A stretch of DNA of 64,000 nt from an uncultured Gemmatimonadales bacterium (GTDB taxonomy: Bacteria > Gemmatimonadota > Gemmatimonadetes > Gemmatimonadales > GWC2-71-9): contig CAWHFW010000005.1 in assembly GCA_963828735.1 (NCBI GenBank), forward strand, positions 2,208,001 to 2,272,000. The letters are read 5' to 3'. The notes under the pieces were generated by a model. That model searched no databases and was not told where the DNA came from. It was given only the letters and a program-made list of their open reading frames with translations. Shown in pieces: positions 45,150-63,752 of the stretch (positions are counted from its first letter, which is position 1; each line of letters begins with the position of its first letter). A program made the translations under genes and the position numbers.

Positions 45150-46788
45150 TCAGGGGCCGGGTGTCGCTGGCCGAATCTCCACGCGGCGGTTGGCGGCGCG
45201 TCCGCGCGGGGTGGTATCACCGGTGAGCGGCACCGACGAGCCATAGCCGCGCGCCACGATCTGCTGGTAGCTGACGCCTTTCACGACCAGGTAGTCGCGA
45301 ACCGCCTCTGCCTGAAGCTGGGTGAGGCGGTTGTCATCGCTCGTCGAGCCGCTGTTGTCGGTATGGGCGCCGATCTCGACCCGCGAGGCGGGATTCGCGA
45401 TGAGCAGATCCGCCAGCGAATCCAGGGCGACGTAGGAGGACGTCTGAAGCCGTGCCGTGCCCGAGGCGAAGGTGACGTTCGGTATCACGCCCGACGCGAT
45501 CACCAGGGCGCCGGCCTTCGGCACCGTGACGTTCGGATGTTGGATCGGTCGTCCGGTGGTGTCGATGGGCGGCCGGGCGGCAGCACCGCTGGGGGGAGGC
45601 TGCGCCGCGTTCGGCTGCGAGACGCCGGCGCGTGGCGCTGCCTGGGTCGGGGCTGCTGCGGCGGCCCCCGCCCGCGCGGGCGGAGGCGCACCCGACGGCG
45701 CGCCCTGGTTGGCCGCCTGGCCCTGGGCGCAGCCCGACGAGTTCACGGCGGCGCCGGGCTGTGTCCGCGGGCAGTGATCGAGCCCGTCGAGCACGCCGTC
45801 ACCATCCTCGTCGCCCGGGCAACCGAGGGCATCCACCGTGGCCCCGCGAGGCGTGTCCGAGCAGCGGTCGAGGCCGTCGGGGATCTGGTCGCCGTCGCTG
45901 TCCTTGGGGCAGCCGCGCGGGTCCACCAGCACGCCCGCGGGCGTGTCGGGGCACCGATCGAGGCCGTCGGGGATGTTGTCGCCGTCGGTGTCCTGCGAGC
46001 ATCCGCGGGCGTCCACGGCGGCGCCGGCCACGGTGGTCGGGCATCGGTCGATGCCGTCGGGCACCCCGTCGCCGTCGCCGTCGCTCGGGCAGCCGCGCGA
46101 GTCCACCGACGCGCCGCTCGGCGTATCGGAGCACCGGTCGTGGTTGTCGAGCACGCCGTCCCCGTCGGTATCGAGGATGGGCTTGCTGCCAAGCATGAAG
46201 CTCACCCCGGCATTCACGCCGAAGTTGGACAGCGTCACGCCCGCGGCGTTCTCCCTGGGCCTTGCTCTTGTTCCGGTTGTAGAGGCCCTCGACGCGCGCG
46301 AGGATCGTGGGCGTCAGCCCGACCCGGAAGCCCGCGCCCCCCAGGAACGCGCCGCTGCTGCCGCAGATCGGATTGTCGGGGCTCGCGACGCTGGGGCAGC
46401 TCCCGCCGTACTTGGTCGACCCACCGCCCGCCTTCAGATAGAAGGTGGTGCTGGACCCGATCAGGAAATTGTAGAGCGCCGAGATGCCGAACGTCTTGAC
46501 GCTGACGCTCTCGTCCCCGGTCTTGCTGTTGGGCGACGAGAACGCGCCCTCCACCTCGACCGAGAAGTTGAGCGGCAGCCACAGGCCGACCCGCGCGACG
46601 CCCCCGGGCGCGCCGTCCAGTTGGGTGTCCGAATCGAATGACTGGTAGGCGCCGGCGGCGCTCAGCTCGACGAGATACTTCCGCTGCTGGGCGGCGCCGA
46701 CGCGCGCACACGCCACGACGAGGGCGAGGCCGGCCAGGAGTCCGACTCCCCCGGCCCAGCCCCTGAAGGGCTGCTGGTAGGTTCGCAT
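45150..46788 (-). pseudogene. OmpA family protein (beta-barrel + TSP3-like repeats + OmpA C-terminal domain) split by a 1-nt frameshift near 46253
   Basis: N-terminal barrel frame reads ...NRNKSKAQ; removing one base from CAG-G-GAG joins it to ENAAGVTLSNFG...DxDGDG repeats...ANRRVEI. Confidence 0.8.
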
Positions 46789-48229: not shown

Positions 48230-50282
48230 CCCCGCCTACCCGCCGACCCGGACCGTGGACGTGACCGACGTCCTCCACGGCGAAACGATTTCCGATCCCT
48301 ATCGCTGGCTGGAGGACGGTGAGGACCCGGACACACGCGCGTGGACGGAGCGGCAGAACGCGCTCACCGAGGCATGGCTGGCCCGGTTCCCGGGCCGCGA
48401 CTCGATCCGGCGCCGGCTCGACGAGCTGCTCGCGATCGGCGCCATCAGCGTGCCCACGCCTGCCCGCGGCCGCTACTTCTACCAGCGGCGGGAGGGGCGG
48501 CAGAACCAGCCGGTCCTGTACGTCCGGGATGGTCTGGATGGCGAGGACCGCGCAGCGATAGACCCGAACGCGCTCGATCCCGCCGGTACGACCGCGCTCG
48601 ACTGGTACTTCCCGAGCGACGACGGCAAGCTCCTGGCCTACGGCCTGAGCCAGAACGGAAGCGAGCAAAGCGTGCTGCACGTCTTCGACGTGGACGCCGG
48701 GACCAGCCTGCCTGAGCGGATTCCCCGGACTCGCGCGGCCGACCTGGCGTGGCTGCCCGACTCCTCGGGCTTCTACTACACCCGCTATCCGGAGCCGGGC
48801 ACGGTGCCCGCCGGAGAGGAGCCCTACCACCGGGCGGTGTTCTTCCACCCGCTCGGCGGAGATCCCGCCGACGACGAGCTCGTCTACCAGCCCGGCGCGA
48901 AGGAATACTGGCCCGGCGTGGCGTTGTCGCCGGACGGGCGGTGGCTGCTCATCAGCGTGGCCCGGACGTTCGATCAGACCGATCTCTACCTCGGCGACCG
49001 GAACGCCGCGGGCTGGACCTCCGTCCCACCGCTCGTTGCCGTCGCCGAGGGCCTCCCGTTCTCCTTCGACGGGGAGATCGCGCACGGACGGCTCTTCCTC
49101 CGCACCAACCTCGACGCGCCGACGTACCGGATGTACGAGGTGAATCCCGAGCATCCCCAGCGGGGCCACTGGCGCGAGCTGGTGCCGCCGCGTGAGGAGG
49201 CCGTGCTGGAAGGGGCTCGGGTCGTGGGCGACCGGCTGGCGCTGAGCTATCTCGAGCGTGCGTCGTCCCGCCTCCGTATCGCCGACCTCGACGGCGGCCT
49301 GCGCCGCGAGGTGTCGATGCCGACGCTCGGCAGCCTATTCGGCCTCGGCGCCGAGTGGGATGGTCACGAGCTGTTCTTCGGATTCTCGTCGTACACCGTT
49401 CCACCCAGCGTTTACCGCCTCGATCTCGCGGCCGATCGGCAGACACTGTGGCGGCGAGTCGAGGCGGATGTGGATCCGGAGCGATACGAGGTCCGGCAGG
49501 TGAGCGTCCCATCCCGCGACGGCACCGAGGTCACGATGTTCCTCGTGCACCGCCGGGGCCTCGCCCGGAACGGCGATGCGCCGACCTACCTCACCGGGTA
49601 CGGCGGCTTCAACATCAGCATGACGCCGGCCTTCTCCCGGTCGCTGCTCCTGTGGCTCGAGCACGGCGGGCTGGTCGCCGTTCCCAACATCCGGGGCGGG
49701 GGGGAGTATGGCGAAGGGTGGCACCAGGGCGGGATGCTCGAACGTAAGCAGAACAGCTTCGACGACTTCATCGCCGCCGCGGAGTGGCTCATCCGCGAGC
49801 GGTACACCCGGCCGGAACGGCTGGCCGTGGCCGGCGGCTCGAACGGCGGCCTGCTCATGGGCGCCGTCCTGACCCAGCGCCCGGAGCTATTCCGGGCGGT
49901 CGTGATCCAAGTACCCCTGCTCGATATGTTGCGCTACCACCGGTTCCTCATCGCGCGCCTCTGGATTCCCGAGTACGGGTCGTCGGACGACCTCGAGGCG
50001 TTCCGCTGGCTCCGGGCGTACTCGCCGTATCATCACGTGCAGGAAGGCACGCCCTATCCCGCCGTGCTGCTGGCCACCGCGGAGAGCGACACGCGGGTGG
50101 ATCCGATGCACGCGCGCAAAATGACCGCGCGTTTGCAGGCCGCCTCGGCCTCGGGGCGTCCCGTACTGCTGCGCCTCGAGGCGCGGGCGGGACATGGCGC
50201 GGGAAAGCCGCTGGCCAAAGTGCTGGACGAGCTGACGGACACGTGGACGTTTGTGTTTTCGCAGGTGGGGGTCGAGGTTTAG
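48222..50282 (+). CDS. Prolyl oligopeptidase (S9A)
   Basis: DPYRWLED, GYGGFN, GGSNGG nucleophile, DTRVDP, AGHG. Confidence 0.95.
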   Translation: MTDPAYPPTRTVDVTDVLHGETISDPYRWLEDGEDPDTRAWTERQNALTEAWLARFPGRDSIRRRLDELLAIGAISVPTPARGRYFYQRREGRQNQPVLYVRDGLDGEDRAAIDPNALDPAGTTALDWYFPSDDGKLLAYGLSQNGSEQSVLHVFDVDAGTSLPERIPRTRAADLAWLPDSSGFYYTRYPEPGTVPAGEEPYHRAVFFHPLGGDPADDELVYQPGAKEYWPGVALSPDGRWLLISVARTFDQTDLYLGDRNAAGWTSVPPLVAVAEGLPFSFDGEIAHGRLFLRTNLDAPTYRMYEVNPEHPQRGHWRELVPPREEAVLEGARVVGDRLALSYLERASSRLRIADLDGGLRREVSMPTLGSLFGLGAEWDGHELFFGFSSYTVPPSVYRLDLAADRQTLWRRVEADVDPERYEVRQVSVPSRDGTEVTMFLVHRRGLARNGDAPTYLTGYGGFNISMTPAFSRSLLLWLEHGGLVAVPNIRGGGEYGEGWHQGGMLERKQNSFDDFIAAAEWLIRERYTRPERLAVAGGSNGGLLMGAVLTQRPELFRAVVIQVPLLDMLRYHRFLIARLWIPEYGSSDDLEAFRWLRAYSPYHHVQEGTPYPAVLLATAESDTRVDPMHARKMTARLQAASASGRPVLLRLEARAGHGAGKPLAKVLDELTDTWTFVFSQVGVEV

Positions 50283-50323
50283 CAAGAGACACCGGACGTA
50301 CCTGAACCGAGGAGTCCCCGCCG

Positions 50324-50869
50324 ATGGCCTATTCGCAACGCCCCGTCGCCGCGAGCATGTCGCACCCGGACCGATGGCTCGCGTTCCTGCGGATCGTGGT
50401 AGGTCTGTATTTCGCGAAGTCCTTCATCACCAAGCTGTCTCTCGTGATGGTGGGCGGCGTGCTCCCGCTGCCCGGCGCCTCCGAGCGGTGGATCGCCACG
50501 ATGCCCAAGATCGTGAGCAAGCAGGCGGCGGACAATCCGATCCTGTTTTACAAGCACTTCCTCGAGAACACCGTCCTCACGCACCCGGAAACGTTCGCGC
50601 ATCTCACCGCGCTGGGCGAAACGATCACGGGCATCGGGCTCACGCTCGGGCTCCTGACCGGCGCGGCGTCGCTCGTGGGGCTGGTGCTGGTGACGAACTA
50701 CGGCCTGGCGACCCAGTGGATGTCACCGGGGCAGCAGGGCTTTCACATCGTGCTGTTCGCGCTGATGATCGCGTTCTTCGCGGCGCGGTCGGGCCGCACG
50801 TTGGGGCTCGACGCGATGCTGTGGAGCGCGCGGCCCAAATCGATCTTCGCGAGGCGTCCATTTTCCTGA
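50324..50869 (+). CDS. DoxX/DoxD family membrane protein
   Basis: LRIVVGLYF, GETITGIGLTLG, GRTLGLD; TM helices. Confidence 0.8.
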   Translation: MAYSQRPVAASMSHPDRWLAFLRIVVGLYFAKSFITKLSLVMVGGVLPLPGASERWIATMPKIVSKQAADNPILFYKHFLENTVLTHPETFAHLTALGETITGIGLTLGLLTGAASLVGLVLVTNYGLATQWMSPGQQGFHIVLFALMIAFFAARSGRTLGLDAMLWSARPKSIFARRPFS

Positions 50870-50908
50870 CGGCGGAGTAGTCCGAGCAGCAGGGTGAGGG
50901 TGCGACTC

Positions 50909-51478
50909 CTACCTCACCATCACCGGCCGCGACCGCATCCCGCCCACCACGCCGTCCGCCTCGCAGTGCGCATCCCGCGCGCTGTACACCACGCAGAACA
51001 CGCCATCCGCATGCCACCGCTCGTACCACCGCCGCATGACGCCGCGGTCCTGCGCCGAAAAGCGGGTGGACGGCAGGTCCTCGGTGTAGAGGGCGACGTG
51101 AGTGTGCACCGTGCCGGACCAGTCGGGCGGCCCGCAGCGGTCGATCGAGGCTTCGGCGGCGATGCTCAGGGAATCCGCTCCGGTAGGAACGAGCGCGAGG
51201 ATCCGGGCGACGAACACCGTGTCGTTCCGGACGGTCGCGGCCAGGCAGGCGACCCGCTCCTGCTTGGCGGCGACGCTCTCCTCCCAGAGTGCGCGGAGGC
51301 CGAGGCCGGCCTCCTGTCTGAAGCGAAACGCGGGCTGGGGAGCGTTGGAGATGCTGTCGGGCGCGGCGCTGTCCGCGGCGGGCGGCGTGTCGGCGTTGGC
51401 CTGCGCCGCCGCGGGCCGGACGGCCACGACGCTCGCCGCCAGAACGGCGGCGAGCGCGATGCGGCGCCCAGCGCTCAA
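50909..51478 (-). CDS. Exported protein with JAB/MPN (JAMM)-like motif, paralogue B
   Basis: TTG start overlapping the upstream stop; signal peptide ...PAAAQ; ERVACL...GTVHTH...FSAQD. Confidence 0.75.
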   Translation of the reverse strand: MSAGRRIALAAVLAASVVAVRPAAAQANADTPPAADSAAPDSISNAPQPAFRFRQEAGLGLRALWEESVAAKQERVACLAATVRNDTVFVARILALVPTGADSLSIAAEASIDRCGPPDWSGTVHTHVALYTEDLPSTRFSAQDRGVMRRWYERWHADGVFCVVYSARDAHCEADGVVGGMRSRPVMVR

Positions 51479-51957
51479 TACTTCGCGCTGGGGAGAATCA
51501 CCACCTGGGAGCCGTCGATCTCGCAATGGGCCTGGTCCTCGGCGAAGAGCAGGCAGAAGGTGCCGTCGGCCTTCCAGCGCTGCCACCACATCAGCATGAT
51601 CCCACGATCCGCGCCGGAGAACTGGGCGTAGGGTCGCTGGCCGGCGGTGAGCGCGATGTGGGTGTGCACGGTGCCCTGCCACAGGGGCGGGCCGCAGGCC
51701 TCGAGGGAGGCCTGGGCCGACACCGCGAGCGAATCCGCCCCCGCGACGAGCGGTTGGACCCGAGTGATCCGCAGAGTGTCGCCGTCGATGACACTCGCGA
51801 GACAGGCGACCTGCTCCGTCCGTGCAGCGATGCTGGCGCTCCAGAGCGCGTGCAGGCCCGTGACGGCCTCGGAGGTCACACTGAACGCGAGCGGCGCGCT
51901 CCCATGGGGCAGGGCGAGTGGGAGGGCCAGGATCGCCAGGGCCAACCGAGCCGTCAT
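51475..51957 (-). CDS. Exported protein with JAB/MPN (JAMM)-like motif, paralogue A
   Basis: ATGA overlap with the YVTN gene; signal peptide; EQVACL...GTVHTH...FSGAD. Confidence 0.75.
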   Translation of the reverse strand: MTARLALAILALPLALPHGSAPLAFSVTSEAVTGLHALWSASIAARTEQVACLASVIDGDTLRITRVQPLVAGADSLAVSAQASLEACGPPLWQGTVHTHIALTAGQRPYAQFSGADRGIMLMWWQRWKADGTFCLLFAEDQAHCEIDGSQVVILPSAKY

Positions 51958-53063
51958 GGGGCCTCGCCCAGGGCGACGCCCCAGGGGATCTTGCCCACCG
52001 GAATCCTCTTCTCGACCGTCAGCTTGTCGGCATCCACCACGCTCACGTCGTTCGACGGGCCATTGGCCGTGTACAGCTTCCGGCCATCCGGGGTGATCGC
52101 GATGCCCCAGGGGCGCTGCCCCACCGGCACCGACGCGGTCAGCGAATCCGTGGCGACCTCGATCACGGACACGGTTCCTCCTCGTCCGTTGGTCACGTAG
52201 ATCCGCTTGCCGTCCGGCGAGGCGACCGAGCCCATCGTCCTCGAATCCTTGGGCATCGGAAGCACCGCGATCTTCTTCCGGGTCGCCGCGTCGAGCACCC
52301 AGACGGTACCGTCGACCTCGGACGTGACGTACGCTCTGGCGCCGTCTGGCGTGAACGCGAGCGACCGCGGCCGCTTCCCGACCTCCACCTCGCCGATCTT
52401 CTTGCCGGTCTGAGTGTCCAGGATGGTGACGTTGTGATCCGTCTCGCCCGTCACCCAGACAGCCTTCCCGTCGGGCTGGACCTTCACGCCCTCAGGCTCT
52501 TTCCCGACGGGGATGGTCGCGCGAATCTTCCCGCTCGCCACGTCCACGATCGACGCGGTGCCCGCATCCTCGTTGGAGACGAAGAGCGTGCTGCCGTCGA
52601 GGCTGATGTCGAACGCCTCCGGGTCCGACCCGCCCGGGAGCACGCGAGTCACCTTGCGCGCCACGGCGTCCACCACCGCGATGCCGTCCTTCGACTTGTC
52701 GGACTTGAGCTTTTCGCACTCCTCGTCGGGCATGGTCGGCGGACACTTCGGGCTCCCGCTCAGCGCGACGAAGATGGTCTTGCCGTCGGGACTCACGCGC
52801 ACGCCGCGTGGCCGGGTGCCGACGGGGATGGTGGTCACCACGCTGTCCGTACGCGTGTCGATCACGGTGAGGTCCTGCGAGTCCTCGTTCGTGACGTAGG
52901 CCAGCAGCGCCTTGCCGGCCGGCGCGGCGGCCTGGCTCGGCGCGGCCGAGTCGGTGGCCGACGGGCGAGCCTCACGCGGCCCGCACGCGGCACCGAGGGC
53001 GAGGGCGAGCGCCGGGGCGGCGCGAAGGCGAACGATAGGGCGGCGGTCGGTATTACTTGGCAT
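51954..53063 (-). CDS. YVTN beta-propeller lipoprotein (PQQ-catabolism associated type)
   Basis: Lipobox LGAAC; repeated YVTN/SPDG/VGxxP blades. Confidence 0.9.
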   Translation of the reverse strand: MPSNTDRRPIVRLRAAPALALALGAACGPREARPSATDSAAPSQAAAPAGKALLAYVTNEDSQDLTVIDTRTDSVVTTIPVGTRPRGVRVSPDGKTIFVALSGSPKCPPTMPDEECEKLKSDKSKDGIAVVDAVARKVTRVLPGGSDPEAFDISLDGSTLFVSNEDAGTASIVDVASGKIRATIPVGKEPEGVKVQPDGKAVWVTGETDHNVTILDTQTGKKIGEVEVGKRPRSLAFTPDGARAYVTSEVDGTVWVLDAATRKKIAVLPMPKDSRTMGSVASPDGKRIYVTNGRGGTVSVIEVATDSLTASVPVGQRPWGIAITPDGRKLYTANGPSNDVSVVDADKLTVEKRIPVGKIPWGVALGEAP

Positions 53064-53943
53064 CGAATGTGGCCTTGTCTCGGTTACGGGCTTCGGTCAT
53101 GCCCTGGACGCGGTCCAGCCCGATGGCGCCGGTGAAATCCGCGCCGTCCAGGTTCGCCTTGTCCAGCTTGGCCCCGGTGAGGTCGGCGTGTGTGAGGTCG
53201 GTCTGCACCAGCTCGGCGTTGCTCAGCGTGGTTCCGGTCAGCCGGGCTTTGGCCAAGGTCGCGTGGGACAGGTCGGCCTTGAAGAGGTTGGTGTTCGACA
53301 GGTCGGCCCCGGTGAGGTCGGCGCCGACGAACGTCGCGCGCATCACGCCCATCGACTGGTTGCCGGGGTCGGCGCCCATGTTGGCGTTGCGCATGATCGC
53401 TCCGGTGAGCTTGGCGCTCCGGAGGTACCCGATGACGCGCGTGCCCGACAGGTTGGCCTCGCTCAGGTCGGCCGCTTCGATGATCGTGGCGAAGAGGCTC
53501 GCCCCCTCGAGGTTGGCGTGCTGAAGCTTGGCGCGTCGAAGCACCGTGCCGTCGAGATTGGCTTTGGTGAAGTCGGCGCCGGTGAGGATCGCGTCGGTGA
53601 GGTCGCACGAGAACAGGTTGGCGCCTGCCAGCTTGCTGCCGGCCAGCGAGACGCCGGTCAGGTTGGCGCGCTTGAAATCCACGCCGGTCAGGTCGAGCCC
53701 GCTGAGGTTGGCCTTGGCGAAGTCGGGAGGCGAGCTCTGCGTCGCGGCGGCGAGGCGCGACTTGACCTCGGCCGCCGTGAGCCGAACAGTCGGAGAATCG
53801 GCCCGCTCTGCCCGGAGCGGTCCACTCGCGGAGCGGAACAGCCCGGTGGCGCTGGCCGGACCCGCGGTGCCGCCGAGCGGCACCGCGACGAGGATCGCGA
53901 TGCCCGCCTGGAGCCAGGGTGAGATCGGTACGACAGTCGGCAT
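53053..53943 (-). CDS. Exported pentapeptide repeat protein
   Basis: Long A[D/N]Lxx repeat tract; ADPGNQSMGVMRA insert; N-terminal hydrophobic leader. Confidence 0.9.
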   Translation of the reverse strand: MPTVVPISPWLQAGIAILVAVPLGGTAGPASATGLFRSASGPLRAERADSPTVRLTAAEVKSRLAAATQSSPPDFAKANLSGLDLTGVDFKRANLTGVSLAGSKLAGANLFSCDLTDAILTGADFTKANLDGTVLRRAKLQHANLEGASLFATIIEAADLSEANLSGTRVIGYLRSAKLTGAIMRNANMGADPGNQSMGVMRATFVGADLTGADLSNTNLFKADLSHATLAKARLTGTTLSNAELVQTDLTHADLTGAKLDKANLDGADFTGAIGLDRVQGMTEARNRDKATFDAK

Positions 53944-54024
53944 CGCTCGCCCCCCGTTGGGGTGGTCGTGGGACCGTGCCTCGTGAACATATCCGGACTC
54001 GGCCTGCTTGGCCAACGTACCGGA

Positions 54025-54062
54025 CAAAAGAAGACGGGACCGCGAAGCTCCGCGGTCCCGTC
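54025..54062 (-). terminator. Rho-independent terminator after the cytochrome c gene
   Basis: GACGGGACCGCG-loop-CGCGGTCCCGTC followed by TTCTTTT on the minus strand. Confidence 0.8.
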
Positions 54063-54083
54063 GGCCGTGCCACCCTCGAGCGG

Positions 54084-54524
54084 TCAGCCCTCGCGTTTGA
54101 CCGCTGGTCGGCCGGGCGCGAGCTTCGCGTCGCTTCTCGCCTTCACATAGCTGTAGATCTTGTCGATCGTTGGGATCTCCATCCCGAGCGAGCACCAGGA
54201 CGGCATGCCCTTCTCCGGACGTCCGGCGCAGACCGTCTGCATGAACAGCTCTTTCGTGTTGATCGGTCCGTCGGCCTTGAGCGAGAGGATCAAGTGCGGG
54301 GCGAAGGACGTCCCGAGCGCGTCCTCACCGTGGCACCGGGCACAGTTCAGGTTGAACTGCTTCCACCCGTCGTACACCTCCTGGGTCACAGTGTCCCGCG
54401 GCGCCTGGTGGTAGGCATCGCGGAGCTCCTGGGCGACGGCGCGCGTCGTGAGGGCCGAGGCTGCCAGGAGCACGCCGGCACCCAGCACGATCCGGCGAAG
54501 AACGGCGGTGAGGGGCGTACGCAT
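54084..54524 (-). CDS. xoxG: c-type cytochrome, probable XoxF electron acceptor (XoxG-equivalent)
   Basis: Signal peptide, CARCH, GMPSW; lies directly after xoxF-xoxJ. Confidence 0.8.
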   Translation of the reverse strand: MRTPLTAVLRRIVLGAGVLLAASALTTRAVAQELRDAYHQAPRDTVTQEVYDGWKQFNLNCARCHGEDALGTSFAPHLILSLKADGPINTKELFMQTVCAGRPEKGMPSWCSLGMEIPTIDKIYSYVKARSDAKLAPGRPAVKREG

Positions 54525-54643
54525 GCTCGCAGACGTTCCTTTCGTTTGCAGGGGAGGTTCCAGACTGCCGCCGGCCGCGCAACATCCGCGGCCGGCTATC
54601 TCGACACTTGTACCGTGCGGCCGTCAGACCGCGGCGCGGAGAC

Positions 54644-55534
54644 TCATCCCGGCCCGGCCTTCTTGGCCGTATCGGTCGCGGACTTTTCCTGGGCCTCGGT
54701 GACGATCGGCAGCATCGGGATGTTGTACTGCTTGAGAATGCCGTCGATCTCCGGCCGCCGCCGGTCGAGCACCGCCTGGACGCTGTCGCGGAAGTCCTTG
54801 TCACGCCGGCGGACGGCGATGCCCATGTTGTATTGGAACGGAATGTCGCTCAGGCTGTCCTTCGCCGGGAGAGGCGTGAGCACGAGCGGCACGGGGGACT
54901 GCTTCGCGAAGTAGCCGGCGAGCGGCCCCCAGACGATGGCGAGGTCCACGTCCTTGTTGGCCACACCCTTGATGATGTCCTCTGGGCGCTCTTTGTCACT
55001 GAAAAACGTGAAATAGCCGGTCAGGTTGCCCACCACGCCATAGCGGCTCAGGGCCATGGCCGGCGGCGAGTTCTCGGCGTCGGAGGTGTACATGTTGACG
55101 CCGATCTTGAGCTTCTTGAGCCGCGGGTCGGCCAGCGACTTGAGGTCCTCGAGCCCGCTGCCCTGACGAACCACGAACACATAGCCCGAGCGGAAGTAGG
55201 GCTTGGTTACGCCGGCTATGTCGAGGCCGGCCGGCGCCTCCATCGCCATGTCGCAGTACATGCCGTTCAGGATGCGGAAGTAGCCTCGCCGCGTGGGGTA
55301 CCACACGTAGGTCAGTTTGGCCTTCAGCTCCGTCGCGACCAGCTCCGCGATCTTGTTCTCGAAGCCCTCACTCTTTTCGTTGGACGAGGGCATGTTGTCC
55401 GGGTCGGCACAGACCCGGATGAGGCCCGGGTCCCTGGGCGCGGGGCGCTGGGCATGAGCCGGTACGGCCCGGACCAGGCCGAAGCCGGCCAGCACCAGGA
55501 AACACGCAGTCTGTGAAGCACGGTGCGACATCAC
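54644..55534 (-). CDS. xoxJ: MxaJ/XoxJ-type substrate-binding protein
   Basis: RVCADPDNMPSS, GFENKIA, TKPYFRSGYVFV, VWGPLAGYFA. Confidence 0.92.
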   Translation of the reverse strand: MMSHRASQTACFLVLAGFGLVRAVPAHAQRPAPRDPGLIRVCADPDNMPSSNEKSEGFENKIAELVATELKAKLTYVWYPTRRGYFRILNGMYCDMAMEAPAGLDIAGVTKPYFRSGYVFVVRQGSGLEDLKSLADPRLKKLKIGVNMYTSDAENSPPAMALSRYGVVGNLTGYFTFFSDKERPEDIIKGVANKDVDLAIVWGPLAGYFAKQSPVPLVLTPLPAKDSLSDIPFQYNMGIAVRRRDKDFRDSVQAVLDRRRPEIDGILKQYNIPMLPIVTEAQEKSATDTAKKAGPG

Positions 55535-55565
55535 GCCATCCTGTCTCGAGTCTCTCCTGAACGAC

Positions 55566-55656
55566 CACGGCGCCGGAGCTGACCGCGCCCCGGCGCCGTG
55601 CTCATTTCGTAATTTACCCCCCTGGCGACCGGAGGCTATACCCTCCGGACCGCCAG
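55566..55656 (-). other. Two intercistronic stem-loops between xoxF and xoxJ
   Basis: CACGGCGCCGG...CCGGCGCCGTG (55566-55600) and CTGGCG.CCGGAGG...CCTCCGG..CGCCAG (55622-55656). Confidence 0.65.
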
Positions 55657-55669
55657 AGCTTCTGCCGTA

Positions 55670-57553
55670 TTACTTCGGCGCCGCCATGTTCTTGAGACCG
55701 AACACGGTCATCACGCCGCCCTGGGTGCTGAACTGGCCCGCGTCGCCGAAGGCGCCGAGCGCGCCGAGACCGGCGGTCGGATCTTCTGCGCCGATGCCAG
55801 CGGCCACGCCGATACCGGCCCAGCCGCCGATGCCCGAGTAGACGGCCACGTACTGCTGGCCATCCGGCCCGAGGTAGGTCATCGGGTTGCCGATGATGCC
55901 CGACGGCGTCTTGAACTGCCAGAGGACCTTGCCGGTCTTGGCATCGACGCCCTTGAGCCAGCCTTCCATGGTGCCGTAGAAGACGAGCCCGCCGGCCGTG
56001 GTCATGGCCCCGCCGTACGCCGCGAGGTTCTCCTTGATCTCCCACACCACGGAGCCCTTCATCGGATCCCAGGCGATGAACCGGCCGCGATGGCCGCCGG
56101 GGCCCGGGAACATCCGCACGATCGCGCCGACGTACGGCTGACCGGCGGTGTACTTCACCTCGACGCCTTCATAGTCCATGCAGATGTGGTTCGCCGGGAC
56201 GTAGAAGAGGCCGGTGACCGGCGAGTACGCCGAGGGCTGCTGATCCTTGAAGCCGATGGCGGCCGGGCAGATGCCCTCGCCGTTCTTCTTCGAGGAGGTG
56301 CCGTACTTCGGATCCTTGACCGGCACGCCGGTGGTCGTGACGCCCTCGACCGGGGTGCCCGTGCCGCCGTTTTTGGCCCAGTTGATCGGGCCGTACGCGT
56401 TGCCGACGATAACCTTGCCGTTGGTGCGGTCGACCGTGTACGCGATGCCGTTACGATCGAAGTGGGCAAGCAGCTTCTTGCCACCGCTCTCGAACAGCAC
56501 GTTCTCGTTCACGCCGTCATAGTCCCACTCATCGTGCGGGGTCATCTGGTAGGCCCAGACCACCGTGCCGTCATCCGGCTTCCGCGCGAACATGGTCATC
56601 GACCACTTGTTGTCGCCCGGCCGCTGGTCAGGATTCCAGGTGCCCGGGTTGCCCACGCTGTAGTAGAAGTTGTCGAGCTCGGGGTCGTAGGAGTACCAGC
56701 CCCACGTGGTCCCGCCGCCCCGCTTCCACTCGTCGCCCTGCCAGGTCGAGACGCCGAGATCCTTGCCCTTGTGAGACGGATAGTTCGCGTTCGCGTCGCC
56801 CTTGAGGAGGACTTCGTCGTCCGGGCCGGTGCTGTAGCCGGTCCAGATGTGCTCGCCCGTGTTGGCGTCGAAGGCCGAGACGCGGCCGCGCACGCCGAAC
56901 TCGCCGCCGGAGATACCGGCGATGACGATTTCCTTGCCCGACTTGGTCTTGATGTAGATCGGGGCGTTGGTCATCGTGGCGCCCTGCTTGTAGCCGTTGG
57001 CCTCGACCCCGGCGTTCGAGTGATCCGGGTGCTTGGCCTTCCACAGCTCCTTGCCGGTCTTCGCGTCGAGGGCGATCAGCTCACCCTGCAGCGCCTGGAT
57101 GTAGATCTTCCCGCTCGGGCTGTACGCCGTTCCACGATTCACCAGGTCGCAGCACGCGATTGGAATCGCGTCGGGCGACTGGTTGGGCACGTACTTCCAG
57201 ATCTGCGGCGCGCCGGGCTTCGACAGATCGAGCGCGTACACGATGTTCGGGAAGGACGTGTTGACGTACATCACATTGCCGATGACGAGCGGATTGCCCT
57301 CGTGGCCGCGCAGCGTGCCGGTCGAGAACGACCAGACGGGCCGCAGCTCGCCGACGTTGGCCGTCGTGATCTGCTTGAGCGGGCTGAACCGCTGCAGGCT
57401 GTAATCACGGCCGGTCATCGTCCATTCGCCCTCTTTGCCGTTCAGGGTCCATGCCCCTGTACGAGCAGCCTGGGCGTTGGCGGACGCAACGAAGGCTACG
57501 CTCAGCCCCGCCGCGATCCCGCCGCACAGCACCTTCTGCGTAAAGCGGTTCAT
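55670..57553 (-). CDS. xoxF: Lanthanide-dependent PQQ methanol dehydrogenase (XoxF type)
   Basis: Signal peptide; CCDLVNRG vicinal Cys; GGEFGVRG; GNPGTWN; RPGDNKWS; DEWDYDGVNE with the extra Asp. Confidence 0.92.
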   Translation of the reverse strand: MNRFTQKVLCGGIAAGLSVAFVASANAQAARTGAWTLNGKEGEWTMTGRDYSLQRFSPLKQITTANVGELRPVWSFSTGTLRGHEGNPLVIGNVMYVNTSFPNIVYALDLSKPGAPQIWKYVPNQSPDAIPIACCDLVNRGTAYSPSGKIYIQALQGELIALDAKTGKELWKAKHPDHSNAGVEANGYKQGATMTNAPIYIKTKSGKEIVIAGISGGEFGVRGRVSAFDANTGEHIWTGYSTGPDDEVLLKGDANANYPSHKGKDLGVSTWQGDEWKRGGGTTWGWYSYDPELDNFYYSVGNPGTWNPDQRPGDNKWSMTMFARKPDDGTVVWAYQMTPHDEWDYDGVNENVLFESGGKKLLAHFDRNGIAYTVDRTNGKVIVGNAYGPINWAKNGGTGTPVEGVTTTGVPVKDPKYGTSSKKNGEGICPAAIGFKDQQPSAYSPVTGLFYVPANHICMDYEGVEVKYTAGQPYVGAIVRMFPGPGGHRGRFIAWDPMKGSVVWEIKENLAAYGGAMTTAGGLVFYGTMEGWLKGVDAKTGKVLWQFKTPSGIIGNPMTYLGPDGQQYVAVYSGIGGWAGIGVAAGIGAEDPTAGLGALGAFGDAGQFSTQGGVMTVFGLKNMAAPK

Positions 57554-58273
57554 AACTGACCTCAGGATGAAGGGTGGTTCTACTGCTCTACTGCATTTCG
57601 TTGCCGCGTGCTGGCTGACGTGTGCTGCGAGTGCCGGGGGCGGCTGAGGCGGCGACTGGGCTCGAGTCCCGCTCGTGGCTGCCGGCCGGCGCGACCTACG
57701 GACTGGCAGGACGGCCGGGCGGCGACGGCGGACCTCGTTCGGCCATCGCGGGGTCCCCGCGCTCGCTGCGGGATGGGGTTCTCCCTGAAGTACGCCTCGA
57801 GACAGCCCCGCGGATGGTCGCGGGATGCGCCACGGCGTCAGGGCACCGGGCTGGACTCGGGCACGAGGCAACGCTGTGAGGAGTGCGAAAACGACCAAGG
57901 GAAGGGAGCGACGAGGACCGGAAGGACAGGGGTGACGCGGTATGCCCGTTCGGATGCCACCGCCACCGCGTCGTTCCCGTGCGCCACGCGCCCTGCGAGG
58001 CGCAGGACCGCGCATCGACCGCGAGGGAATACGACATCGTGCCAACGGTGGAAGCGAACGGGAACAAGCCCATCTCACCCCTCAGCGTCGCCGCTGAACC
58101 ACGTTGTGCTCATTTAAAGAACTGCACTTGAGGAGGCGGCTCGGCACTGTGCCGCCCGAAACATTCTTCTGTTCCAAGCCCTGGAAACACTGGAGCAGTC
58201 CCGCGACAGTCGACTGTGGCACTGCGACGCGAACATCAGCCAAGTCGCCGCCTGCGGGAGGCTTAGAGGGGCC

Positions 58274-58302
58274 AGTATACATCGTGCAAAATGAACTGTC
58301 AA
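58274..58302 (-). promoter_or_regulatory. Near-consensus sigma70 promoter pointing towards xoxF
   Basis: TTGACA-N17-TATACT; the -35 box overlaps the mptG stop codon. Confidence 0.7.
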
Positions 58303-59276
58303 TCACGGTTTCCGGCATTTCGCGACCGCCAGACCCGGGCCCCGGACCCCGCGAATCCCCCCTCGAAAACCTGGCCGCCCGGTCCCGCCACCTCCGCTGC
58401 CCGCCCCGCCAGCGCCCGTCCCTCCTCCACGCTCCCGACCAGCCCATACACCGCGGGCCCCCAGGAGCTCTGCCCGACCCCCGCCGCCCCCCACTCCGCC
58501 AGGCGTCCGACCAGCGTTTCCGAGGGGCCGCGCGCGAAGGTCCCGCCTTGCTCGGGAGCGAACCACGCGCCGGTGATGCGCTGGATCTCCGTGAGCGCGG
58601 CGCCGAAGCTCGTGAGATCGGCCTCCGCCAGCGCCGGCAACAGCTGCATCAGCACCAGGTGCGCGACGCGCTCCACTTCACGCTCGGCGGGCGGCGCGAG
58701 CCGTTCGAACGCCGCGGCCTCGGCGTCGCCGCTCAAGCCAGGGGTGCCCCGAGGCACCACCACCACGCAGCGCCATGTTGCCGGAAGTGGAAAACGGGCC
58801 AGCAGCGGTGCGATGTCGCCCGCCCCCGGCCTGCGTCCACCTTCCACGATGAAGCCGCCCAGGGCGAATGTCCAGGTGCCGATCGCCGATCGGCGGCCAC
58901 GGTCCACCGCGCGCGCCAGGGCGGCGGGCTCGGTCGGGAGGCCGTAGAGCTCCGCGAGCGCGCGCGCCACGGCCAGGCCGAGCTGGGTGCCGGAGCCGAG
59001 TCCGCTGTGCGGCGGGATCGCCCGATGCACCGTCAGACGCACGCCGCCAGTGAGCTCGTGGTGGGCGAGGAATCGCTCCGCGAACGCCATGGCGCGCTCC
59101 GCCTCCGGTCCACGGGCGCTCAACCCTGTGGCCCGGACCGCCTCCAGCAACAGCGATGGCGCCGGCACTGCGGCGCCCAGTCCGCCAAAGCGCCGGCCCA
59201 GTGCCCCGCGGAGGTCGAGCACCCCGAAATGGAGCCGGGCATCCGCCTCCACGAAGACGCTACCGGTCTCGGACAT
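58299..59276 (-). CDS. mptG: Beta-ribofuranosylaminobenzene 5'-phosphate (beta-RFAP) synthase
   Basis: ARLHFG, HSGLGSGTQ, RSAIG...GGFIVEGG, GQSSWGP (GHMP-like RFAP synthase motifs). Confidence 0.92.
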   Translation of the reverse strand: MSETGSVFVEADARLHFGVLDLRGALGRRFGGLGAAVPAPSLLLEAVRATGLSARGPEAERAMAFAERFLAHHELTGGVRLTVHRAIPPHSGLGSGTQLGLAVARALAELYGLPTEPAALARAVDRGRRSAIGTWTFALGGFIVEGGRRPGAGDIAPLLARFPLPATWRCVVVVPRGTPGLSGDAEAAAFERLAPPAEREVERVAHLVLMQLLPALAEADLTSFGAALTEIQRITGAWFAPEQGGTFARGPSETLVGRLAEWGAAGVGQSSWGPAVYGLVGSVEEGRALAGRAAEVAGPGGQVFEGGFAGSGARVWRSRNAGNRD

Positions 59277-59805
59277 ACTCGGTGAGCATGGCCATCGCCT
59301 CATGCTCGCGCGGTCCGGCGGTCTTGTCCACGATGACCTGCAGGCGGGCGAACTCGGAGCGGATCTCCTCGCGCGGGATGAGGTGTGTCCGGGTCGCGAA
59401 GATGGCGGCCTCGAGCACCGCGTGGCGGGCGCGGTTGAAGCCGAGGAACTCCCGCCGGTTTCCGCGATGCACCACGCGGGTCTCGATGCGCGATCTGGGT
59501 GGCGTGTCGTCGATCGACACCACCTCGAGCTCGCGCCAGGAGCAAGCGGCCTCGAGCACCGCCCCGCGCACCACCGTCGCCGGCAGCCAGGGGAACTGGG
59601 GACTCGAAATGGCCCCCTGGGCGAACAGCATGACGTCGTCGGTGAGATTGACGACGGCCACCCGCGTCTCGCGCACGTTGCGGAACGTGGTCGTCTCGAG
59701 AAACGGCTTGATGACGATCGTCGGGTCGCCCCACTCGACGCCCATGGGGGCGAAGTTGATCGCCCCATCCGGCGCCATCGTCGTCAGGATGGACTCGATG
59801 ATCAC
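59260..59805 (-). CDS. DUF447 family protein (methanopterin-cluster associated)
   Basis: ESILTT...NFAPMG...KPF..TTTFRN, GFNRARHAVLEAAI, VDKTAG. Confidence 0.85.
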   Translation of the reverse strand: MIIESILTTMAPDGAINFAPMGVEWGDPTIVIKPFLETTTFRNVRETRVAVVNLTDDVMLFAQGAISSPQFPWLPATVVRGAVLEAACSWRELEVVSIDDTPPRSRIETRVVHRGNRREFLGFNRARHAVLEAAIFATRTHLIPREEIRSEFARLQVIVDKTAGPREHEAMAMLTEYVRDR

Positions 59806-60476
59806 CGCACGATATCCACCGGCGGTGGGGCGGAGGCGAGCGTGCTCTCTTCGGGGCCCGCGGGCACGAGCACGCAGTCGGCAGCGACGGGCACGGCGCG
59901 GGGAGTGGCCGGAACCCCGTGCAGGAAGTGATCGACCAGGCGGTAGCCGTGCTCCGTCAGCACCGATTCCGGGTGGAACTGCACCCCGTGCACCGGGTGC
60001 CGGGCGTGCTGGACGGCCATGATCTCGCCGTCCTCGGACGTCGCCAGGACCTCGAGATCGGACGGAACGGAGGCCGGCGCGATCACGAGCGAGTGGTATC
60101 GGGTCGCGCGAAACGGCGAGGGCAAGCCGTGAAAGATGCCGGCGCCGGTGTGGTGGATCATCGAGGTCTTGCCGTGCATGGGCTGACCGGCTCGAACGAT
60201 CTCGCCGCCGTAGGCGGCCCCGATGCATTGGTGTCCCAGACACACTCCCAGGATCGGTATCGTGGCGCCGAGACGGCGGACGACCTCGGTGGAAATCCCC
60301 GCCTCGGCGGGCGAGCAGGGACCCGGGGAAATGATGATGTGGGAGGGCGCCATCGCTTCCACGTCATCGACGCTCAGGGCGTCGTGCCGGAGGACCACCG
60401 GGGTTTCCCCGAGCTCACGGACGTAGCGCGCCAGGTTGTAGACGAACGAGTCGTAGTTGTCGAGCAGGAGGATCAT
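59802..60476 (-). CDS. pabA: Aminodeoxychorismate synthase glutamine amidotransferase component
   Basis: DNYDSFVYN, SPGP, GVCLGHQ, RYHSL, QFHPES. Confidence 0.92.
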   Translation of the reverse strand: MILLLDNYDSFVYNLARYVRELGETPVVLRHDALSVDDVEAMAPSHIIISPGPCSPAEAGISTEVVRRLGATIPILGVCLGHQCIGAAYGGEIVRAGQPMHGKTSMIHHTGAGIFHGLPSPFRATRYHSLVIAPASVPSDLEVLATSEDGEIMAVQHARHPVHGVQFHPESVLTEHGYRLVDHFLHGVPATPRAVPVAADCVLVPAGPEESTLASAPPPVDIVR

Positions 60477-61966
60477 GAGCCGGCCAGCGCGCCGATCAAC
60501 CCGCGCGCCTTGTCCAGAGTTTCCCGGTATTCGAGCTCGGGATCGGAATCGGCCACGATTCCGCCGCCCGCCTGGAAGTATACCCGGCCCCGAAGCGCCA
60601 GATAGGTACGGATCACGATGCTCGTATCCATCGCGCCCGTCGTCGACAGATACCCGATGGAGCCGCAGTACACGCCGCGGCGGGACGGCTCGAGCTCGGC
60701 GATGATCTCCATCGCCCGGACCTTGGGCGCGCCCGTGATTGAGCCGCCTGGAAACGCCGCGCGAAGGAGCTGAATCGCATCCGCCGACGGGTCGAGCTCG
60801 CCGACGACGGTCGACACGAGATGATGCACGGTCGGATGCGCCTCGAGCGCGAACAGCTCGGGCACGCGGACGGTCCCCGCCTTGCACACCCGCGAGAGGT
60901 CGTTCCGCAGCAGATCCACGATCATCACGTTCTCGGCCCGGTCCTTGTCGCTCTCGGCGAGGGCGCGACCGAGCGCGGCGTCGTGCATCGGGCCGAGCCC
61001 GCGGGGACGGGTGCCCTTGATGGGGCGGGTCTCGACGTGGCGCCCGTTCTCGTCCAGCCGAAGGAACCGCTCCGGCGAGGCGCTCATCACGTGGTGGCTG
61101 CCGCAGTCGAGATAGGCGGCAAACGGGGCCGGATTCCGGCGCCGGAGGCGGGTGTAGAGATCGAACGGCGCCTCGGTGAGCGGCGACTGGAAACGCTGGG
61201 AGAGGTTGGCCTGGAAGATGTCCCCGGCGACGATGTAGTCGCGGACGCGAGTGACCGCGTCGAGGTAGCCGCGGTGCGTGAACGTCGAGCGGAGTCCGAT
61301 CGGCTCCGCCCGCTCCACGCCGAGCACCGGGTAGGACGGCGCCTCCGCCTCTACGGGCGGGAGGTGCGGACGTCCGCCGGTCGCGGGCCGTCGGGCGGGA
61401 CCGCCCAACCGCTCCCGCACCATCGCCAACCGCTCGCGCGCACGGACCTCGCGCGCCACGCCGGACTCGGGCAGCCCGGTCGAGATGATCCAGGCCGTTC
61501 CGACCCGGTGGTCCCACGCGATGACCCAGTCGTACAGGCCGAGAATGACGTCGGGGATCGCGAGGTCGTCGAACCGGGGCGCCGGCAGGCGCTCGAGGGC
61601 CGCGCCGTAGTCGTATCCGATGTACCCGGCGGCGCCTCCCTGGAATGGTGGCAGGCCCGAGACGGGCGCGGCGGCGAACGGCGCCAGCAGCTCCCCCACG
61701 GTGAGCAGGGGATCCGCGTCGGTAGGTGTCCACGGGAGGCCAGGGCCACCGATCTCCGTCGTCCGCCCCTTGCTGCGCACGATCCGCGCGGGGTCGGCGG
61801 CGAGGAACGAGTAGCGGCCGAGGTGGTGAGCGTCGCCCCCGCGCGGGGCGCCCGTGGCGCTGTCGAGAAACACGAGCCACGGAAGGTCGAGGAACCGGGC
61901 GACGACCGCGATCGGGTCCCCCGTCTCGCCCAGGTTGTCTACCAGCGGGGCCGCACGATCGTCCAT
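60473..61966 (-). CDS. pabB: Aminodeoxychorismate synthase component I
   Basis: SASPERF, TRPIKGTRPR (PabB-type PIKGT), AENVMIVDLLRNDL, PGGSITGAPK. Confidence 0.92.
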   Translation of the reverse strand: MDDRAAPLVDNLGETGDPIAVVARFLDLPWLVFLDSATGAPRGGDAHHLGRYSFLAADPARIVRSKGRTTEIGGPGLPWTPTDADPLLTVGELLAPFAAAPVSGLPPFQGGAAGYIGYDYGAALERLPAPRFDDLAIPDVILGLYDWVIAWDHRVGTAWIISTGLPESGVAREVRARERLAMVRERLGGPARRPATGGRPHLPPVEAEAPSYPVLGVERAEPIGLRSTFTHRGYLDAVTRVRDYIVAGDIFQANLSQRFQSPLTEAPFDLYTRLRRRNPAPFAAYLDCGSHHVMSASPERFLRLDENGRHVETRPIKGTRPRGLGPMHDAALGRALAESDKDRAENVMIVDLLRNDLSRVCKAGTVRVPELFALEAHPTVHHLVSTVVGELDPSADAIQLLRAAFPGGSITGAPKVRAMEIIAELEPSRRGVYCGSIGYLSTTGAMDTSIVIRTYLALRGRVYFQAGGGIVADSDPELEYRETLDKARGLIGALAGS

Positions 61967-63417
61967 TAGCGCGGGCCCCGCCGAGAGGGCGCGCCCGGGC
62001 GCCGGCGACGCGGCGTGAGCTTCACGTGGTCCGAGCGCAGCTCGTCGGGCGGTGTGAGATATCCCCACTGCAGCGCGCCTTCCTGCCGGTAGGTCTTGCC
62101 CAGCGTGATGGCGAGCTTGGCGCGGGCCAGCTCCCGTCCCAGATAGAACGCGTGGGTCGCCTCGTCCACGCCGAGCTGCGCGAAGATCTCCTGGATGTCG
62201 GTGCCGCGCACGAAGATCTCGTCGTTGAAGACGGTGATCGTGGTGCGGTCGGTGAAGATGCGGAAGTTGGGATCCTTGACGGCGGCGTGGAGCTGGCGGA
62301 GCTCGGCTTCGTCGTACTCGAGGATGACCGGGTCCTTCACCGTGACCAGTCGGTCGTCCACGTTCTTGGGCAGCGTGCGCTGCCGGACGGCGTGGTACAT
62401 GAGGCGGCGGGCGACGTCGATCTCGCGCACCGCGCCCCGTGCCCACGGAATCACTTCCGTCGTGAGCACGGCGCGGACGCCGGTCTCCTGGCAGATGGCG
62501 AGCAGCAGGGCGTGGACGCCGGTCGTGTCGGCGCTGGTGAGCTCGGTGATGTTGCCGACGCCCATCAGCTGCGCCGCGTCCGGATGACGACGGTGGATTT
62601 CGGCGTACCGCTCGAGCGAGGCGGTGAAGCCGAAGCCGATCGGCTCGATGACCGGATCGATGAGGTATCCCACGCCCCACCGCTCGAGCGCCTCGAGCGT
62701 GGCGGACAGGGTATCGATCCCCTCGCCGAAGTCCGGAATCGCGACGACGCGCGCACCCGTGCCGGCAAGCGCGCGCGCGACGTCGCGGTTGGAGCCGTTG
62801 ACGCTCAACACCAGCTCGGCGCCCGCCTCGACGGCCGCGCGGATCTCTCCCGGATCGAAGCTGTCCACGCTCACCCGCATACCCGCACCGCGGAGCTCGC
62901 GCACGATGTCGGGCAGCGCGGGAAAGGGAACGCCCGGGGTGCAGCCGAGGTCGATGATGTCGGCGCCGCTCGCGGCGAAGTAGTCCGCCGCGGCCCGAAC
63001 CGCCTCGCGGGACAGCTTCGGGGCGTTGTTGATCTCGGCGAGGATTTCGATGTCGTACTCCCCGTAGCTCACCGCGGCCTGGGCGTGGCCGAAGTAGCGG
63101 GGAATCTCGCGGAGGTCCTTCGGGCCCCTTTCCACGGGGACGCCGTAGCGCTCGCGCAGAACTTCGGTGTCGCCTTCGACGAGACCCGGCAGGAGCACCA
63201 GGTCGGTGTCGGGCGGCACCTCGAGGAACCGCGCGATCCATGGCGTCGTCATGAGCGCGGCCACGGTGATCTTCATGACCGCCACCGCCGCCTCGAACGG
63301 CGGCGCCATCTCGTCCAGGACACGCCGAAGCGCCGGCTCGGCGAGCCGGCCGGTGACAAACAGGACTTTGCGGGGCGCCGCGGCTGGTGCTACCGTGGAT
63401 CCCCCGGCCGAACCCAT
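61966..63417 (-). CDS. Dihydropteroate-synthase-related methanopterin protein (Orf20-like; DUF6513/DUF4346)
   Basis: FVTGRLAE, VAALMT, GPKDLREIP, GADIIDLG, GNITELT, HAFYLGRELARA. Confidence 0.85.
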   Translation of the reverse strand: MGSAGGSTVAPAAAPRKVLFVTGRLAEPALRRVLDEMAPPFEAAVAVMKITVAALMTTPWIARFLEVPPDTDLVLLPGLVEGDTEVLRERYGVPVERGPKDLREIPRYFGHAQAAVSYGEYDIEILAEINNAPKLSREAVRAAADYFAASGADIIDLGCTPGVPFPALPDIVRELRGAGMRVSVDSFDPGEIRAAVEAGAELVLSVNGSNRDVARALAGTGARVVAIPDFGEGIDTLSATLEALERWGVGYLIDPVIEPIGFGFTASLERYAEIHRRHPDAAQLMGVGNITELTSADTTGVHALLLAICQETGVRAVLTTEVIPWARGAVREIDVARRLMYHAVRQRTLPKNVDDRLVTVKDPVILEYDEAELRQLHAAVKDPNFRIFTDRTTITVFNDEIFVRGTDIQEIFAQLGVDEATHAFYLGRELARAKLAITLGKTYRQEGALQWGYLTPPDELRSDHVKLTPRRRRPGAPSRRGPR

Positions 63418-63752
63418 TTGTTCGGCGTCCCCTCGAGCGCGCCACCCGTCGGTCGCCAGAGCGCGACCTCCTCGATCTTCCGCGCGAGCTCGAAGTCCTT
63501 GTCCGTGATCCCGCCGGCGGCGTGGTTCTGGAGCTTCACGGTCATCCGCCCCCACGTGACCGACAGGTCCGGGTGGTGGTAGGCCGCTTCCGCCAGGTAG
63601 CCGACGGCGTTCACCAGCATCAGGGTCGTGGGCCATCCGTCGGTCTTGAACACCCGTCGGATCCAGCCATCCTCGTAGTACCAGCCGGGCAGCGCCTTCA
63701 GCCGCTCGGTGATTTCTGCCTCGTCGTAGGTACGCTCTTTGGTCGCCGGCAT
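63390..63752 (-). CDS. Pterin-4a-carbinolamine dehydratase
   Basis: AEAAYHHPDL...NHAAGGITDKDFELA; SD AAGGAG. Confidence 0.92.
   Translation of the reverse strand: MPATKERTYDEAEITERLKALPGWYYEDGWIRRVFKTDGWPTTLMLVNAVGYLAEAAYHHPDLSVTWGRMTVKLQNHAAGGITDKDFELARKIEEVALWRPTGGALEGTPNKWVRPGDPR

Follow-up and report, generated by a model that had tools for sequence, protein, structure and literature searches.

Putative exported JAMM/MPN+ zinc hydrolases beside the xoxF methanol dehydrogenase cluster of a Gemmatimonadales bacterium

At the end of a xoxF cluster in an uncultured Gemmatimonadales bacterium lie two adjacent genes, here called JAB1 and JAB2, whose products may be read as optional periplasmic zinc peptide or amide hydrolases with a PQQ-XoxF module protein as their target, a reading to which we give a probability of about one half. 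The predicted fold, the conserved catalytic residues, the hydrophobic leaders, the gene linkage and the genome-level co-occurrence point in this direction, and a hydrolase activity may be inferred from them. JAMM enzymes as a kind are known; what is new here is an exported, cysteine-stabilised branch tied to methylotrophy. Work on these enzymes has dealt with the cleavage of ubiquitin-like tails inside cells, and in print we found exported ones only among predicted toxins. A periplasmic branch of stand-alone, disulfide-bearing proteins whose site is intact would mean that the fold has a new class of substrates. The branch has been recruited repeatedly to xoxF, PQQ and H4MPT genes and provides a small, expressible candidate for the poorly understood helper steps of the lanthanide methanol dehydrogenase in soil Gemmatimonadetes.

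The tandem genes and their neighbourhood

The initial annotation of the window, the whole stretch of 64,000 nucleotides that was analysed, placed two adjacent paralogues at the end of the xox cluster, and both the pair and its position are confirmed: xoxF, xoxJ, xoxG, a pentapeptide-repeat gene and a YVTN propeller gene are followed by JAB1 and then JAB2 (Table 1). The two proteins share 51% identity over 127 amino acids (E 7e-49), and each contains the E, HxH, SxxD and four-cysteine motif that had been claimed, as E48, C52, D75, C88, H98-T-H100, thirteen intervening residues, S114-x2-D117, C135 and C145 in JAB1, and as E74, C78, C115, H125-T-H127, S141, D144, C162 and C172 in JAB2. Both genes are real; their GC3 is coding-like (0.88 for JAB1 and 0.92 for JAB2, compared with 0.90 for YVTN and 0.91 for xoxF), and a search of the source genome found them to be its only two copies. 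The proposed coupling by overlaps holds in the window, where an ATGA joins YVTN to JAB1 and a TTGA joins JAB1 to JAB2, but of 14 orthologous loci only 3 keep the TTGA at the JAB1 stop, several of the others having a GTG or ATG a few bases past the stop. The tight JAB1-JAB2 spacing is conserved, and TTG is the probable start codon of JAB2.

The tandem pair is best explained as a recent duplication with both sites intact, unlike the active/inactive heterodimer of Rpn11 and Rpn8, as both paralogues keep all JAMM residues. Tandem pairs were seen only in the genus of the window, other genera having single copies, and in a quick tree with many open forks JAB2 forms a clade (SH-aLRT 100) in which every located member belongs to a tandem locus. 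The suggestion of an obligate heterodimer is therefore unsupported, as single copies occur elsewhere and the second paralogue is confined to one genus.

All named relatives belong to Gemmatimonadales or Gemmatimonadota, some distant metagenome proteins having no taxonomy and a cluster look-up returning none for ten distant relatives. No relative was matched in viral contigs or in plasmids. Some relatives are labelled "endonuclease YncB" (JGI), a label that we reject because the fold is MPN, and that presumably stems from a short VIDGDT word resembling the thermonuclease motif. Contigs from RNA libraries are 97% alike over positions 50838-51284 (JAB2), in one of 4 runs compared of 24; such contigs give no indication of transcription, strand or co-transcription, and the runs shared at most 0.19 of the words.

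Within the cluster, XoxF contains an adjacent Cys-Cys and a D-Y-D motif, which we take to be the lanthanide motif. After xoxG comes a terminator-like hairpin, by which the distal pentapeptide, YVTN, JAB1 and JAB2 genes may be attenuated. Some 720 bases upstream of the xoxF start there is a strong sigma-70-like site (11/12), which leaves a long leader; a search of positions 50000-59000, leader included, gave no Rfam match. Genes of H4MPT type upstream of xoxF are conserved with it. The DoxX/DoxD-like gene that converges on JAB2 is found beside the xoxF cluster in both families, including 15 of 17 informative loci that lack a JAB gene, and is a candidate redox partner. Elsewhere in the window, a gene in two overlapping frames points to either a frameshift or an assembly error, as do pqqE matches in two frames at a second place (Table 1). 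Another locus contains two xoxF copies in one cluster, flanking xoxJ-xoxG.

Table 1. Features of the window and of other loci named in the text (positions preceded by a locus or genome handle lie outside the window)
Feature	Position	Strand	Remark
Outer-membrane barrel, TSP3 repeats and OmpA gene	45150-46788	-	two overlapping frames
DoxX/DoxD-like membrane protein	50324..50869	+	convergent on JAB2; beside cluster with or without JAB gene
JAB2, paralogue of JAB1	50909..51478	-	ORF, probable TTG start, 189 aa; leader ~1-25, then low-complexity linker
JAB1, putative exported JAMM/MPN+ protein	51475..51957	-	ORF, ATG start, 160 aa; leader ~1-22
YVTN beta-propeller resembling PQQ-catabolism-associated propeller (PedA2 type)	51954..53063	-	TIGR03866 255.9 bits, under 287.3 cut-off
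Pentapeptide-repeat protein (PedD-like)	53053..53943	-	start codon probable, read from ORF
Terminator-like hairpin after xoxG	54033..54062	-	pattern match only; 5 found vs 4.1 expected in shuffles
c-type cytochrome (XoxG-like)	54084..54524	-	annotation
XoxJ/MoxJ-type substrate-binding protein	54644..55534	-	TIGR03871 259.8 bits, over cut-off
XoxF-type PQQ methanol dehydrogenase	55670..57553	-	TIGR03075 631 bits; adjacent Cys-Cys, D-Y-D motif
Sigma-70-like site	58274-58302	-	11/12
RFAP-synthase-like, DUF447, pabA, pabB, DUF6513 and pterin dehydratase genes	58299-63752	-	H4MPT-type cofactor genes
pqqE matches in two frames	G000:C5:1224959-1225997
Two xoxF copies flanking xoxJ-xoxG	L063:12346-18076
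Tat-type SoxY-like (ends NGCG), SoxZ, SoxH-like hydrolase and rhodanese operon	L213:8157-10752 (G000:C5 ~246-249 kb)
Cytoplasmic, leaderless Mec-type JAB between cysteine-synthase-like gene and MoaD-MoeB-rhodanese fusion	L214:3926-6710 (G000:C5 ~150-153 kb)
Very divergent leader-bearing JAB-like protein	L216:18232-18891		upstream of soxY-like gene; profile match E 5e-6
Protein beside DUF3280 and DoxX	L114:5660-6061

Predicted fold, catalytic residues and export

The structural models agree with the MPN fold proposed for these proteins, the top matches of both JAB1 and JAB2 being MPN structures. The JAB1 model reached a pLDDT of 90.6 with an alignment of 66 relatives (picked from search matches, with most obvious frameshifted fragments left out), and Foldseek returned MPN proteins only among the matches listed. 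Its best VIA match is Rpn11 (Z 12.3, rmsd 3.2, 125 aligned), and MPN-fold entries make up most of the matches above Z 5 in a wide fold search. The JAB2 model is weak (pLDDT 56, 28 rows) and has BubCD as its best VIA match (Z 12.3, rmsd 3.0, 135 aligned). Identity to the VIA-aligned solved MPN chains is at most 16%, and a viral fold library gave weak generic MPN matches only.

In JAMM enzymes, two histidines and an aspartate hold the zinc, a glutamate activates water and a serine stabilises the intermediate, with usually seven residues between the second histidine and the serine. The JAMM signature had been recognised here in spite of a different spacing: E, HxH and SxxD are indeed intact and conserved, but the spacing departs from the consensus, with 13 residues in 32 of 66 rows, 12 in 24 and seven in one. 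To judge from the alignments, the longer spacing is an insertion and the site residues are not lost. The glutamate, both histidines, the serine, the aspartate and the four cysteines are kept in every covering row (alignments of 66, 60 and 28 rows), and E48, C52, H98, H100 and D117 are invariant across 42 distant sequences; D75, W93, W124 and E146 are further conserved residues of the JAB1 domain. The predicted topology of JAB1 is compatible with E/H/H/D converging on one zinc site.

Neither JAB1 nor JAB2 has a family match in Pfam or NCBIfam, nor does either reach the gathering cut-off of Prok-JAB (PF14464), which is matched by one of the 66 relatives (E 0.005); one distant exported relative lies above that cut-off (27.3 > 25 bits), and Prok-JAB accounts for 76% of a neighbouring Atlas cluster. 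Searched by sequence, solved structures gave no significant match to the family profile, and the genome's own Mec-type JAB (Table 1) aligns with the family at E and HxH, only at E 0.068. The JAB proteins share the MPN fold and the E/H-x-H/S-x2-D set with the JAMM/MPN+ (iso)peptidases (Rpn11, CSN5, archaeal JAMM1, bacterial BubCD, Cap3 and Prok-JAB). They differ from these in their N-terminal export leader, the four conserved cysteines, the 12-13 residues between His and Ser, the low identity and the lack of a Pfam or NCBIfam match, and no ubiquitin-like partner was found in the same compartment. The JAMM mechanism and Ins-1 have been described previously (PMC4822132).

The signal peptides noted at the outset are supported by hydropathy. 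In a heuristic test (score of at least 2.0; leader windows of 75 residues, control windows of 45), 74 of the 82 family members passed, and the exported partners scored alike (xoxF 28/30, xoxJ 29/30, xoxG 30/32, YVTN 26/31). Among the controls, five cytoplasmic proteins passed in 1 of 106 cases and random frames in 267 of 3000, with PFK (18/20) as a false positive. On this basis the JAB1 and JAB2 leaders look like signal peptides. The predicted topology places C135 and C145 face to face on a hairpin, and one distant subfamily has lost both, as would fit a disulfide; in JAB1, C52-C88 and C135-C145 are the probable pairs. Hydrophobic leaders and four conserved cysteines thus favour the periplasmic, disulfide-stabilised protein that had been put forward. 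As for the accompanying statement that known bacterial JABs are cytoplasmic, earlier prokaryotic JABs are intracellular, but secreted Tox-JAB domains, predicted nucleases, have been described as well (PMC3482391).

Linkage to methylotrophy genes

In a first genome scan, the JAB gene stood after YVTN or within the same cluster in 20 of 20 loci. The unrelated neighbours POP and PFK were also syntenic in this first family, and linkage was therefore examined more widely. A total of 138 loci, some of them duplicates or close kin, was fetched and split into subfamilies by the sequence motif after HxH, a locus being counted as linked when a gene of the xox/H4MPT cluster, YVTN included, lies no more than 6 kb away. 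The proposed tie to the xox/PQQ module is borne out: the JAB1/JAB2 subfamily is linked in 105 of 123 loci (41/45 from genomes, 64/78 from metagenomes) versus 0 of 15 in the sister subfamily. Eight of the unlinked loci have DoxX only and ten have neither, 6 of these being short contigs. In the quick tree, the linked copies form one clade (SH-aLRT 83) and the sister subfamily another (85).

The link to the xox/PQQ module is real and outlasts several rearrangements. In a second family the JAB gene lies between RFAP synthase and DoxX; in other arrangements it directly follows the pentapeptide gene or precedes xoxF. In three loci (L123, L124, L208) it lies outside the cluster, having moved with YVTN, and in three more (L114, L122, L161) it lies near DUF3280, with which it moved out in the first two. 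In one genome (G244) it is kept with H4MPT genes and DoxX, with no close xoxF.

Co-occurrence with xoxF across genomes, a check proposed at the outset, is evident. The JAB1/JAB2 subfamily is present in 26 of 56 genomes with a xoxF orthologue (in 23 both lie on one contig, in 3 on separate contigs), an orthologue requiring at least 65% identity (G027, at 60%, was left out). A wide profile for exported JAMMs matched 57 of 301 genomes at E 1e-14 or better. After removal of three genomes with the HNHP type, an exported JAMM is found in 49 of the 56 xoxF genomes, 7 showing none, versus 5 of 245 without an orthologue, both the removal and the identity cut-off having been set after the tables were seen and the genomes being related, so that kin are not independent. 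The same holds in the second family (6/6 versus 1/63) and within two genera when genomes with and without xoxF are compared (g3, 2/2 versus 0/6; g8, 1/1 versus 0/2). About 10-12 candidates were scored per genome, and misses are therefore possible; the tallies include four unpublished genomes (G057, G157, G182, G321), with no claim resting on these alone.

On the other hand, a required step in XoxF maturation is not supported, because, of 20 xoxF clusters taken from genomes that lack a linked copy, the 17 informative ones are all without the JAB gene (the other 3 end at contig edges), whereas an obligate factor would stand in every cluster of this xoxF type, like XoxG and XoxJ. The JAB proteins are thus probably optional rather than essential helpers of the lanthanide methanol-dehydrogenase system.

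Weak matches of the searches belong to additional JAB subfamilies with leaders, which have E, the first Cys, HxH and D in common. Distant subfamilies stand beside fae-mtdB (L071, L073), H4MPT genes (L217, L220), or pqqB and soxYZ-soxH-like genes (L216, L217, L226), and many distant copies lie among housekeeping genes. An exported subfamily of HNHP type occurs in genomes without a xoxF orthologue in 17 of 27 cases. Exported JAMMs therefore exist without methylotrophy, while other subfamilies track it.

Xox clusters of Gemmatimonadetes have been described (PMC5103831, PMC10875860), and their methanol dehydrogenase has been detected in soil proteomes (PMC5103831). JAB, Mov34, JAMM and YncB are absent from three supplements of PMC10875860. 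In the literature searched, which left most subscription journals outside, no paper treats a JAMM together with xoxF and none describes an exported stand-alone JAMM in Gemmatimonadota, though the contig figure of PMC5103831 could show the gene unnamed.

Possible substrates and alternative functions

JAB1 and JAB2 would be exported by Sec and act in the periplasm as disulfide-stabilised JAMM/MPN+ zinc hydrolases, whose site, on the model of JAMM chemistry, would cleave an amide or peptide bond. As to the class of substrate, the most likely would be a module protein that is exported and has an extended peptide arm, the arm being trimmed or an adduct on it removed once the protein is outside. Among named candidates a SoxY-like carrier exported by Tat, with an -NGCG end, ranks first; XoxF and the YVTN propeller are further ones. 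The genome, with four ThiS-family matches, yielded no exported ubiquitin-like protein; its MoaD-like proteins with a GG end show no hydrophobic leader, and no conserved Gly-Gly end was found on the cluster proteins. The SoxY-like protein ends in NGCG in 15 of 15 ends listed, and across the phylum its genes go with the xoxF orthologue (47/52). Exported JAMMs are present in 42 of 52 genomes with a SoxY-like gene, and 12 of 54 exported-JAMM genomes have no SoxY-like match. None of the JAB1/JAB2-subfamily loci examined adjoins soxYZ-like genes. The SoxY arm is a candidate and not a result, because SoxY and JAMM may both simply follow xoxF. A predicted complex of YVTN, JAB2, JAB1 and two zinc ions scored 0.00, which, with controls not folded, is no evidence either way.

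A related system is the ped cluster's quinoprotein relay, which has a SoxYZ-like carrier, a SoxH-like zinc hydrolase and a rhodanese (PP_2666, PP_2677, PP_2678; PMC12997753). Like the JAB proteins, it has an exported zinc hydrolase accompanying Cys-Cys PQQ dehydrogenases, to which a role in maturation or protection has been attributed; the relay hydrolase, though, has a metallo-beta-lactamase fold and JAB1 and JAB2 an MPN fold, and neither JAB protein matches the relay hydrolase families TIGR04558 and TIGR04559. We considered that the JAMMs replace the SoxH-like hydrolase and rejected this, the genome having its own SoxH-like gene; as its operon also includes soxY, soxZ and rhodanese genes, the JAMMs are an addition rather than a replacement. 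A bolder and rather doubtful proposal is a periplasmic carrier/JAMM cycle in Gemmatimonadota, in which repeatedly recruited JAMMs would act on the C-terminal -GCG arm of the SoxY-like carrier or on an adduct borne there, cleaving or resetting it, with the result that the Cys-Cys/PQQ site of lanthanide XoxF stays active. If true, the cycle would be a periplasmic counterpart of ubiquitin-like sulfur-carrier chemistry.

The JAB proteins might also be general envelope hydrolases of Gemmatimonadota whose gene merely hitchhikes with a methylotrophy island. The HNHP-type JAMMs in 17 genomes lacking xoxF, the unlinked sister subfamily, the many xox clusters without a JAB gene and the synteny of unrelated neighbours would all fit this, but the link persists through inversions and through moves with YVTN or DUF3280, C1/PQQ genes adjoin at least three other subfamilies and the contrasts within genera agree with a tie to xoxF, so that we regard hitchhiking as unlikely, if a serious contender. 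Somewhat less credit is due to a periplasmic small-molecule amidase that would, for example, open a metal chelator to release lanthanide or remove a PQQ adduct. No Gly-Gly protein substrate is evident, the JAB gene is coupled to a PedA2-like propeller, one distant locus (L131) has a PQQ-system binding protein upstream, and the domain has the extra conserved residues D75, W93, W124 and E146; moreover, P. putida requires the pedA1A2BC operon to grow in a lanthanide-dependent manner (PMC6839425). Against an amidase, characterised JAMMs act on protein tails (PMC4822132), and the annotated loci, screened mainly with the window's genes, showed no recognisable gene for a chelator or a TonB receptor.

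Two further alternatives depart from peptide or amide hydrolysis altogether. A His2-Asp site suits zinc and not lanthanides, and this, together with the water-activating Glu and the Ser kept in every near-family row, which a mere carrier need not keep, makes it improbable that the MPN fold serves here as a non-catalytic chaperone for lanthanide or zinc, despite the periplasmic location, the adjoining lanthanide-type XoxF and the invariant acidic residues E48, D75 and D117; the role in lanthanide handling proposed at the outset is likewise unsupported. A secreted nuclease or toxin resembling the RadC and Tox-JAB clades appears the least probable of all. Published secreted JAB domains belong to toxins and are predicted nucleases, and Tox-JAB-1 and Tox-JAB-2 (DUF4329) share with the JAB proteins the exit from the cytoplasm and the same E, HxH, S and D set (PMC3482391); RadC is among the JAB1 fold matches (Z 6.6), and one distant member touches DUF4329 (E 0.065). 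Peptidase-type MPNs nevertheless score far higher (Z 10-12) than RadC, and viral contigs and plasmids are without a match. Tox-JABs are toxin tips at the C-terminus of RHS carriers with adjacent immunity genes, or viral secreted proteins (PMC3482391), whereas JAB1 and JAB2 are small proteins of a metabolic operon, stand-alone in all loci read, with no RHS carrier or immunity gene there.

Two proteins at the margin of the family may be added. A very divergent leader-bearing JAB-like protein is encoded upstream of a soxY-like gene (L216, Table 1), and a protein beside DUF3280 and DoxX in L114 resembles it by eye only.
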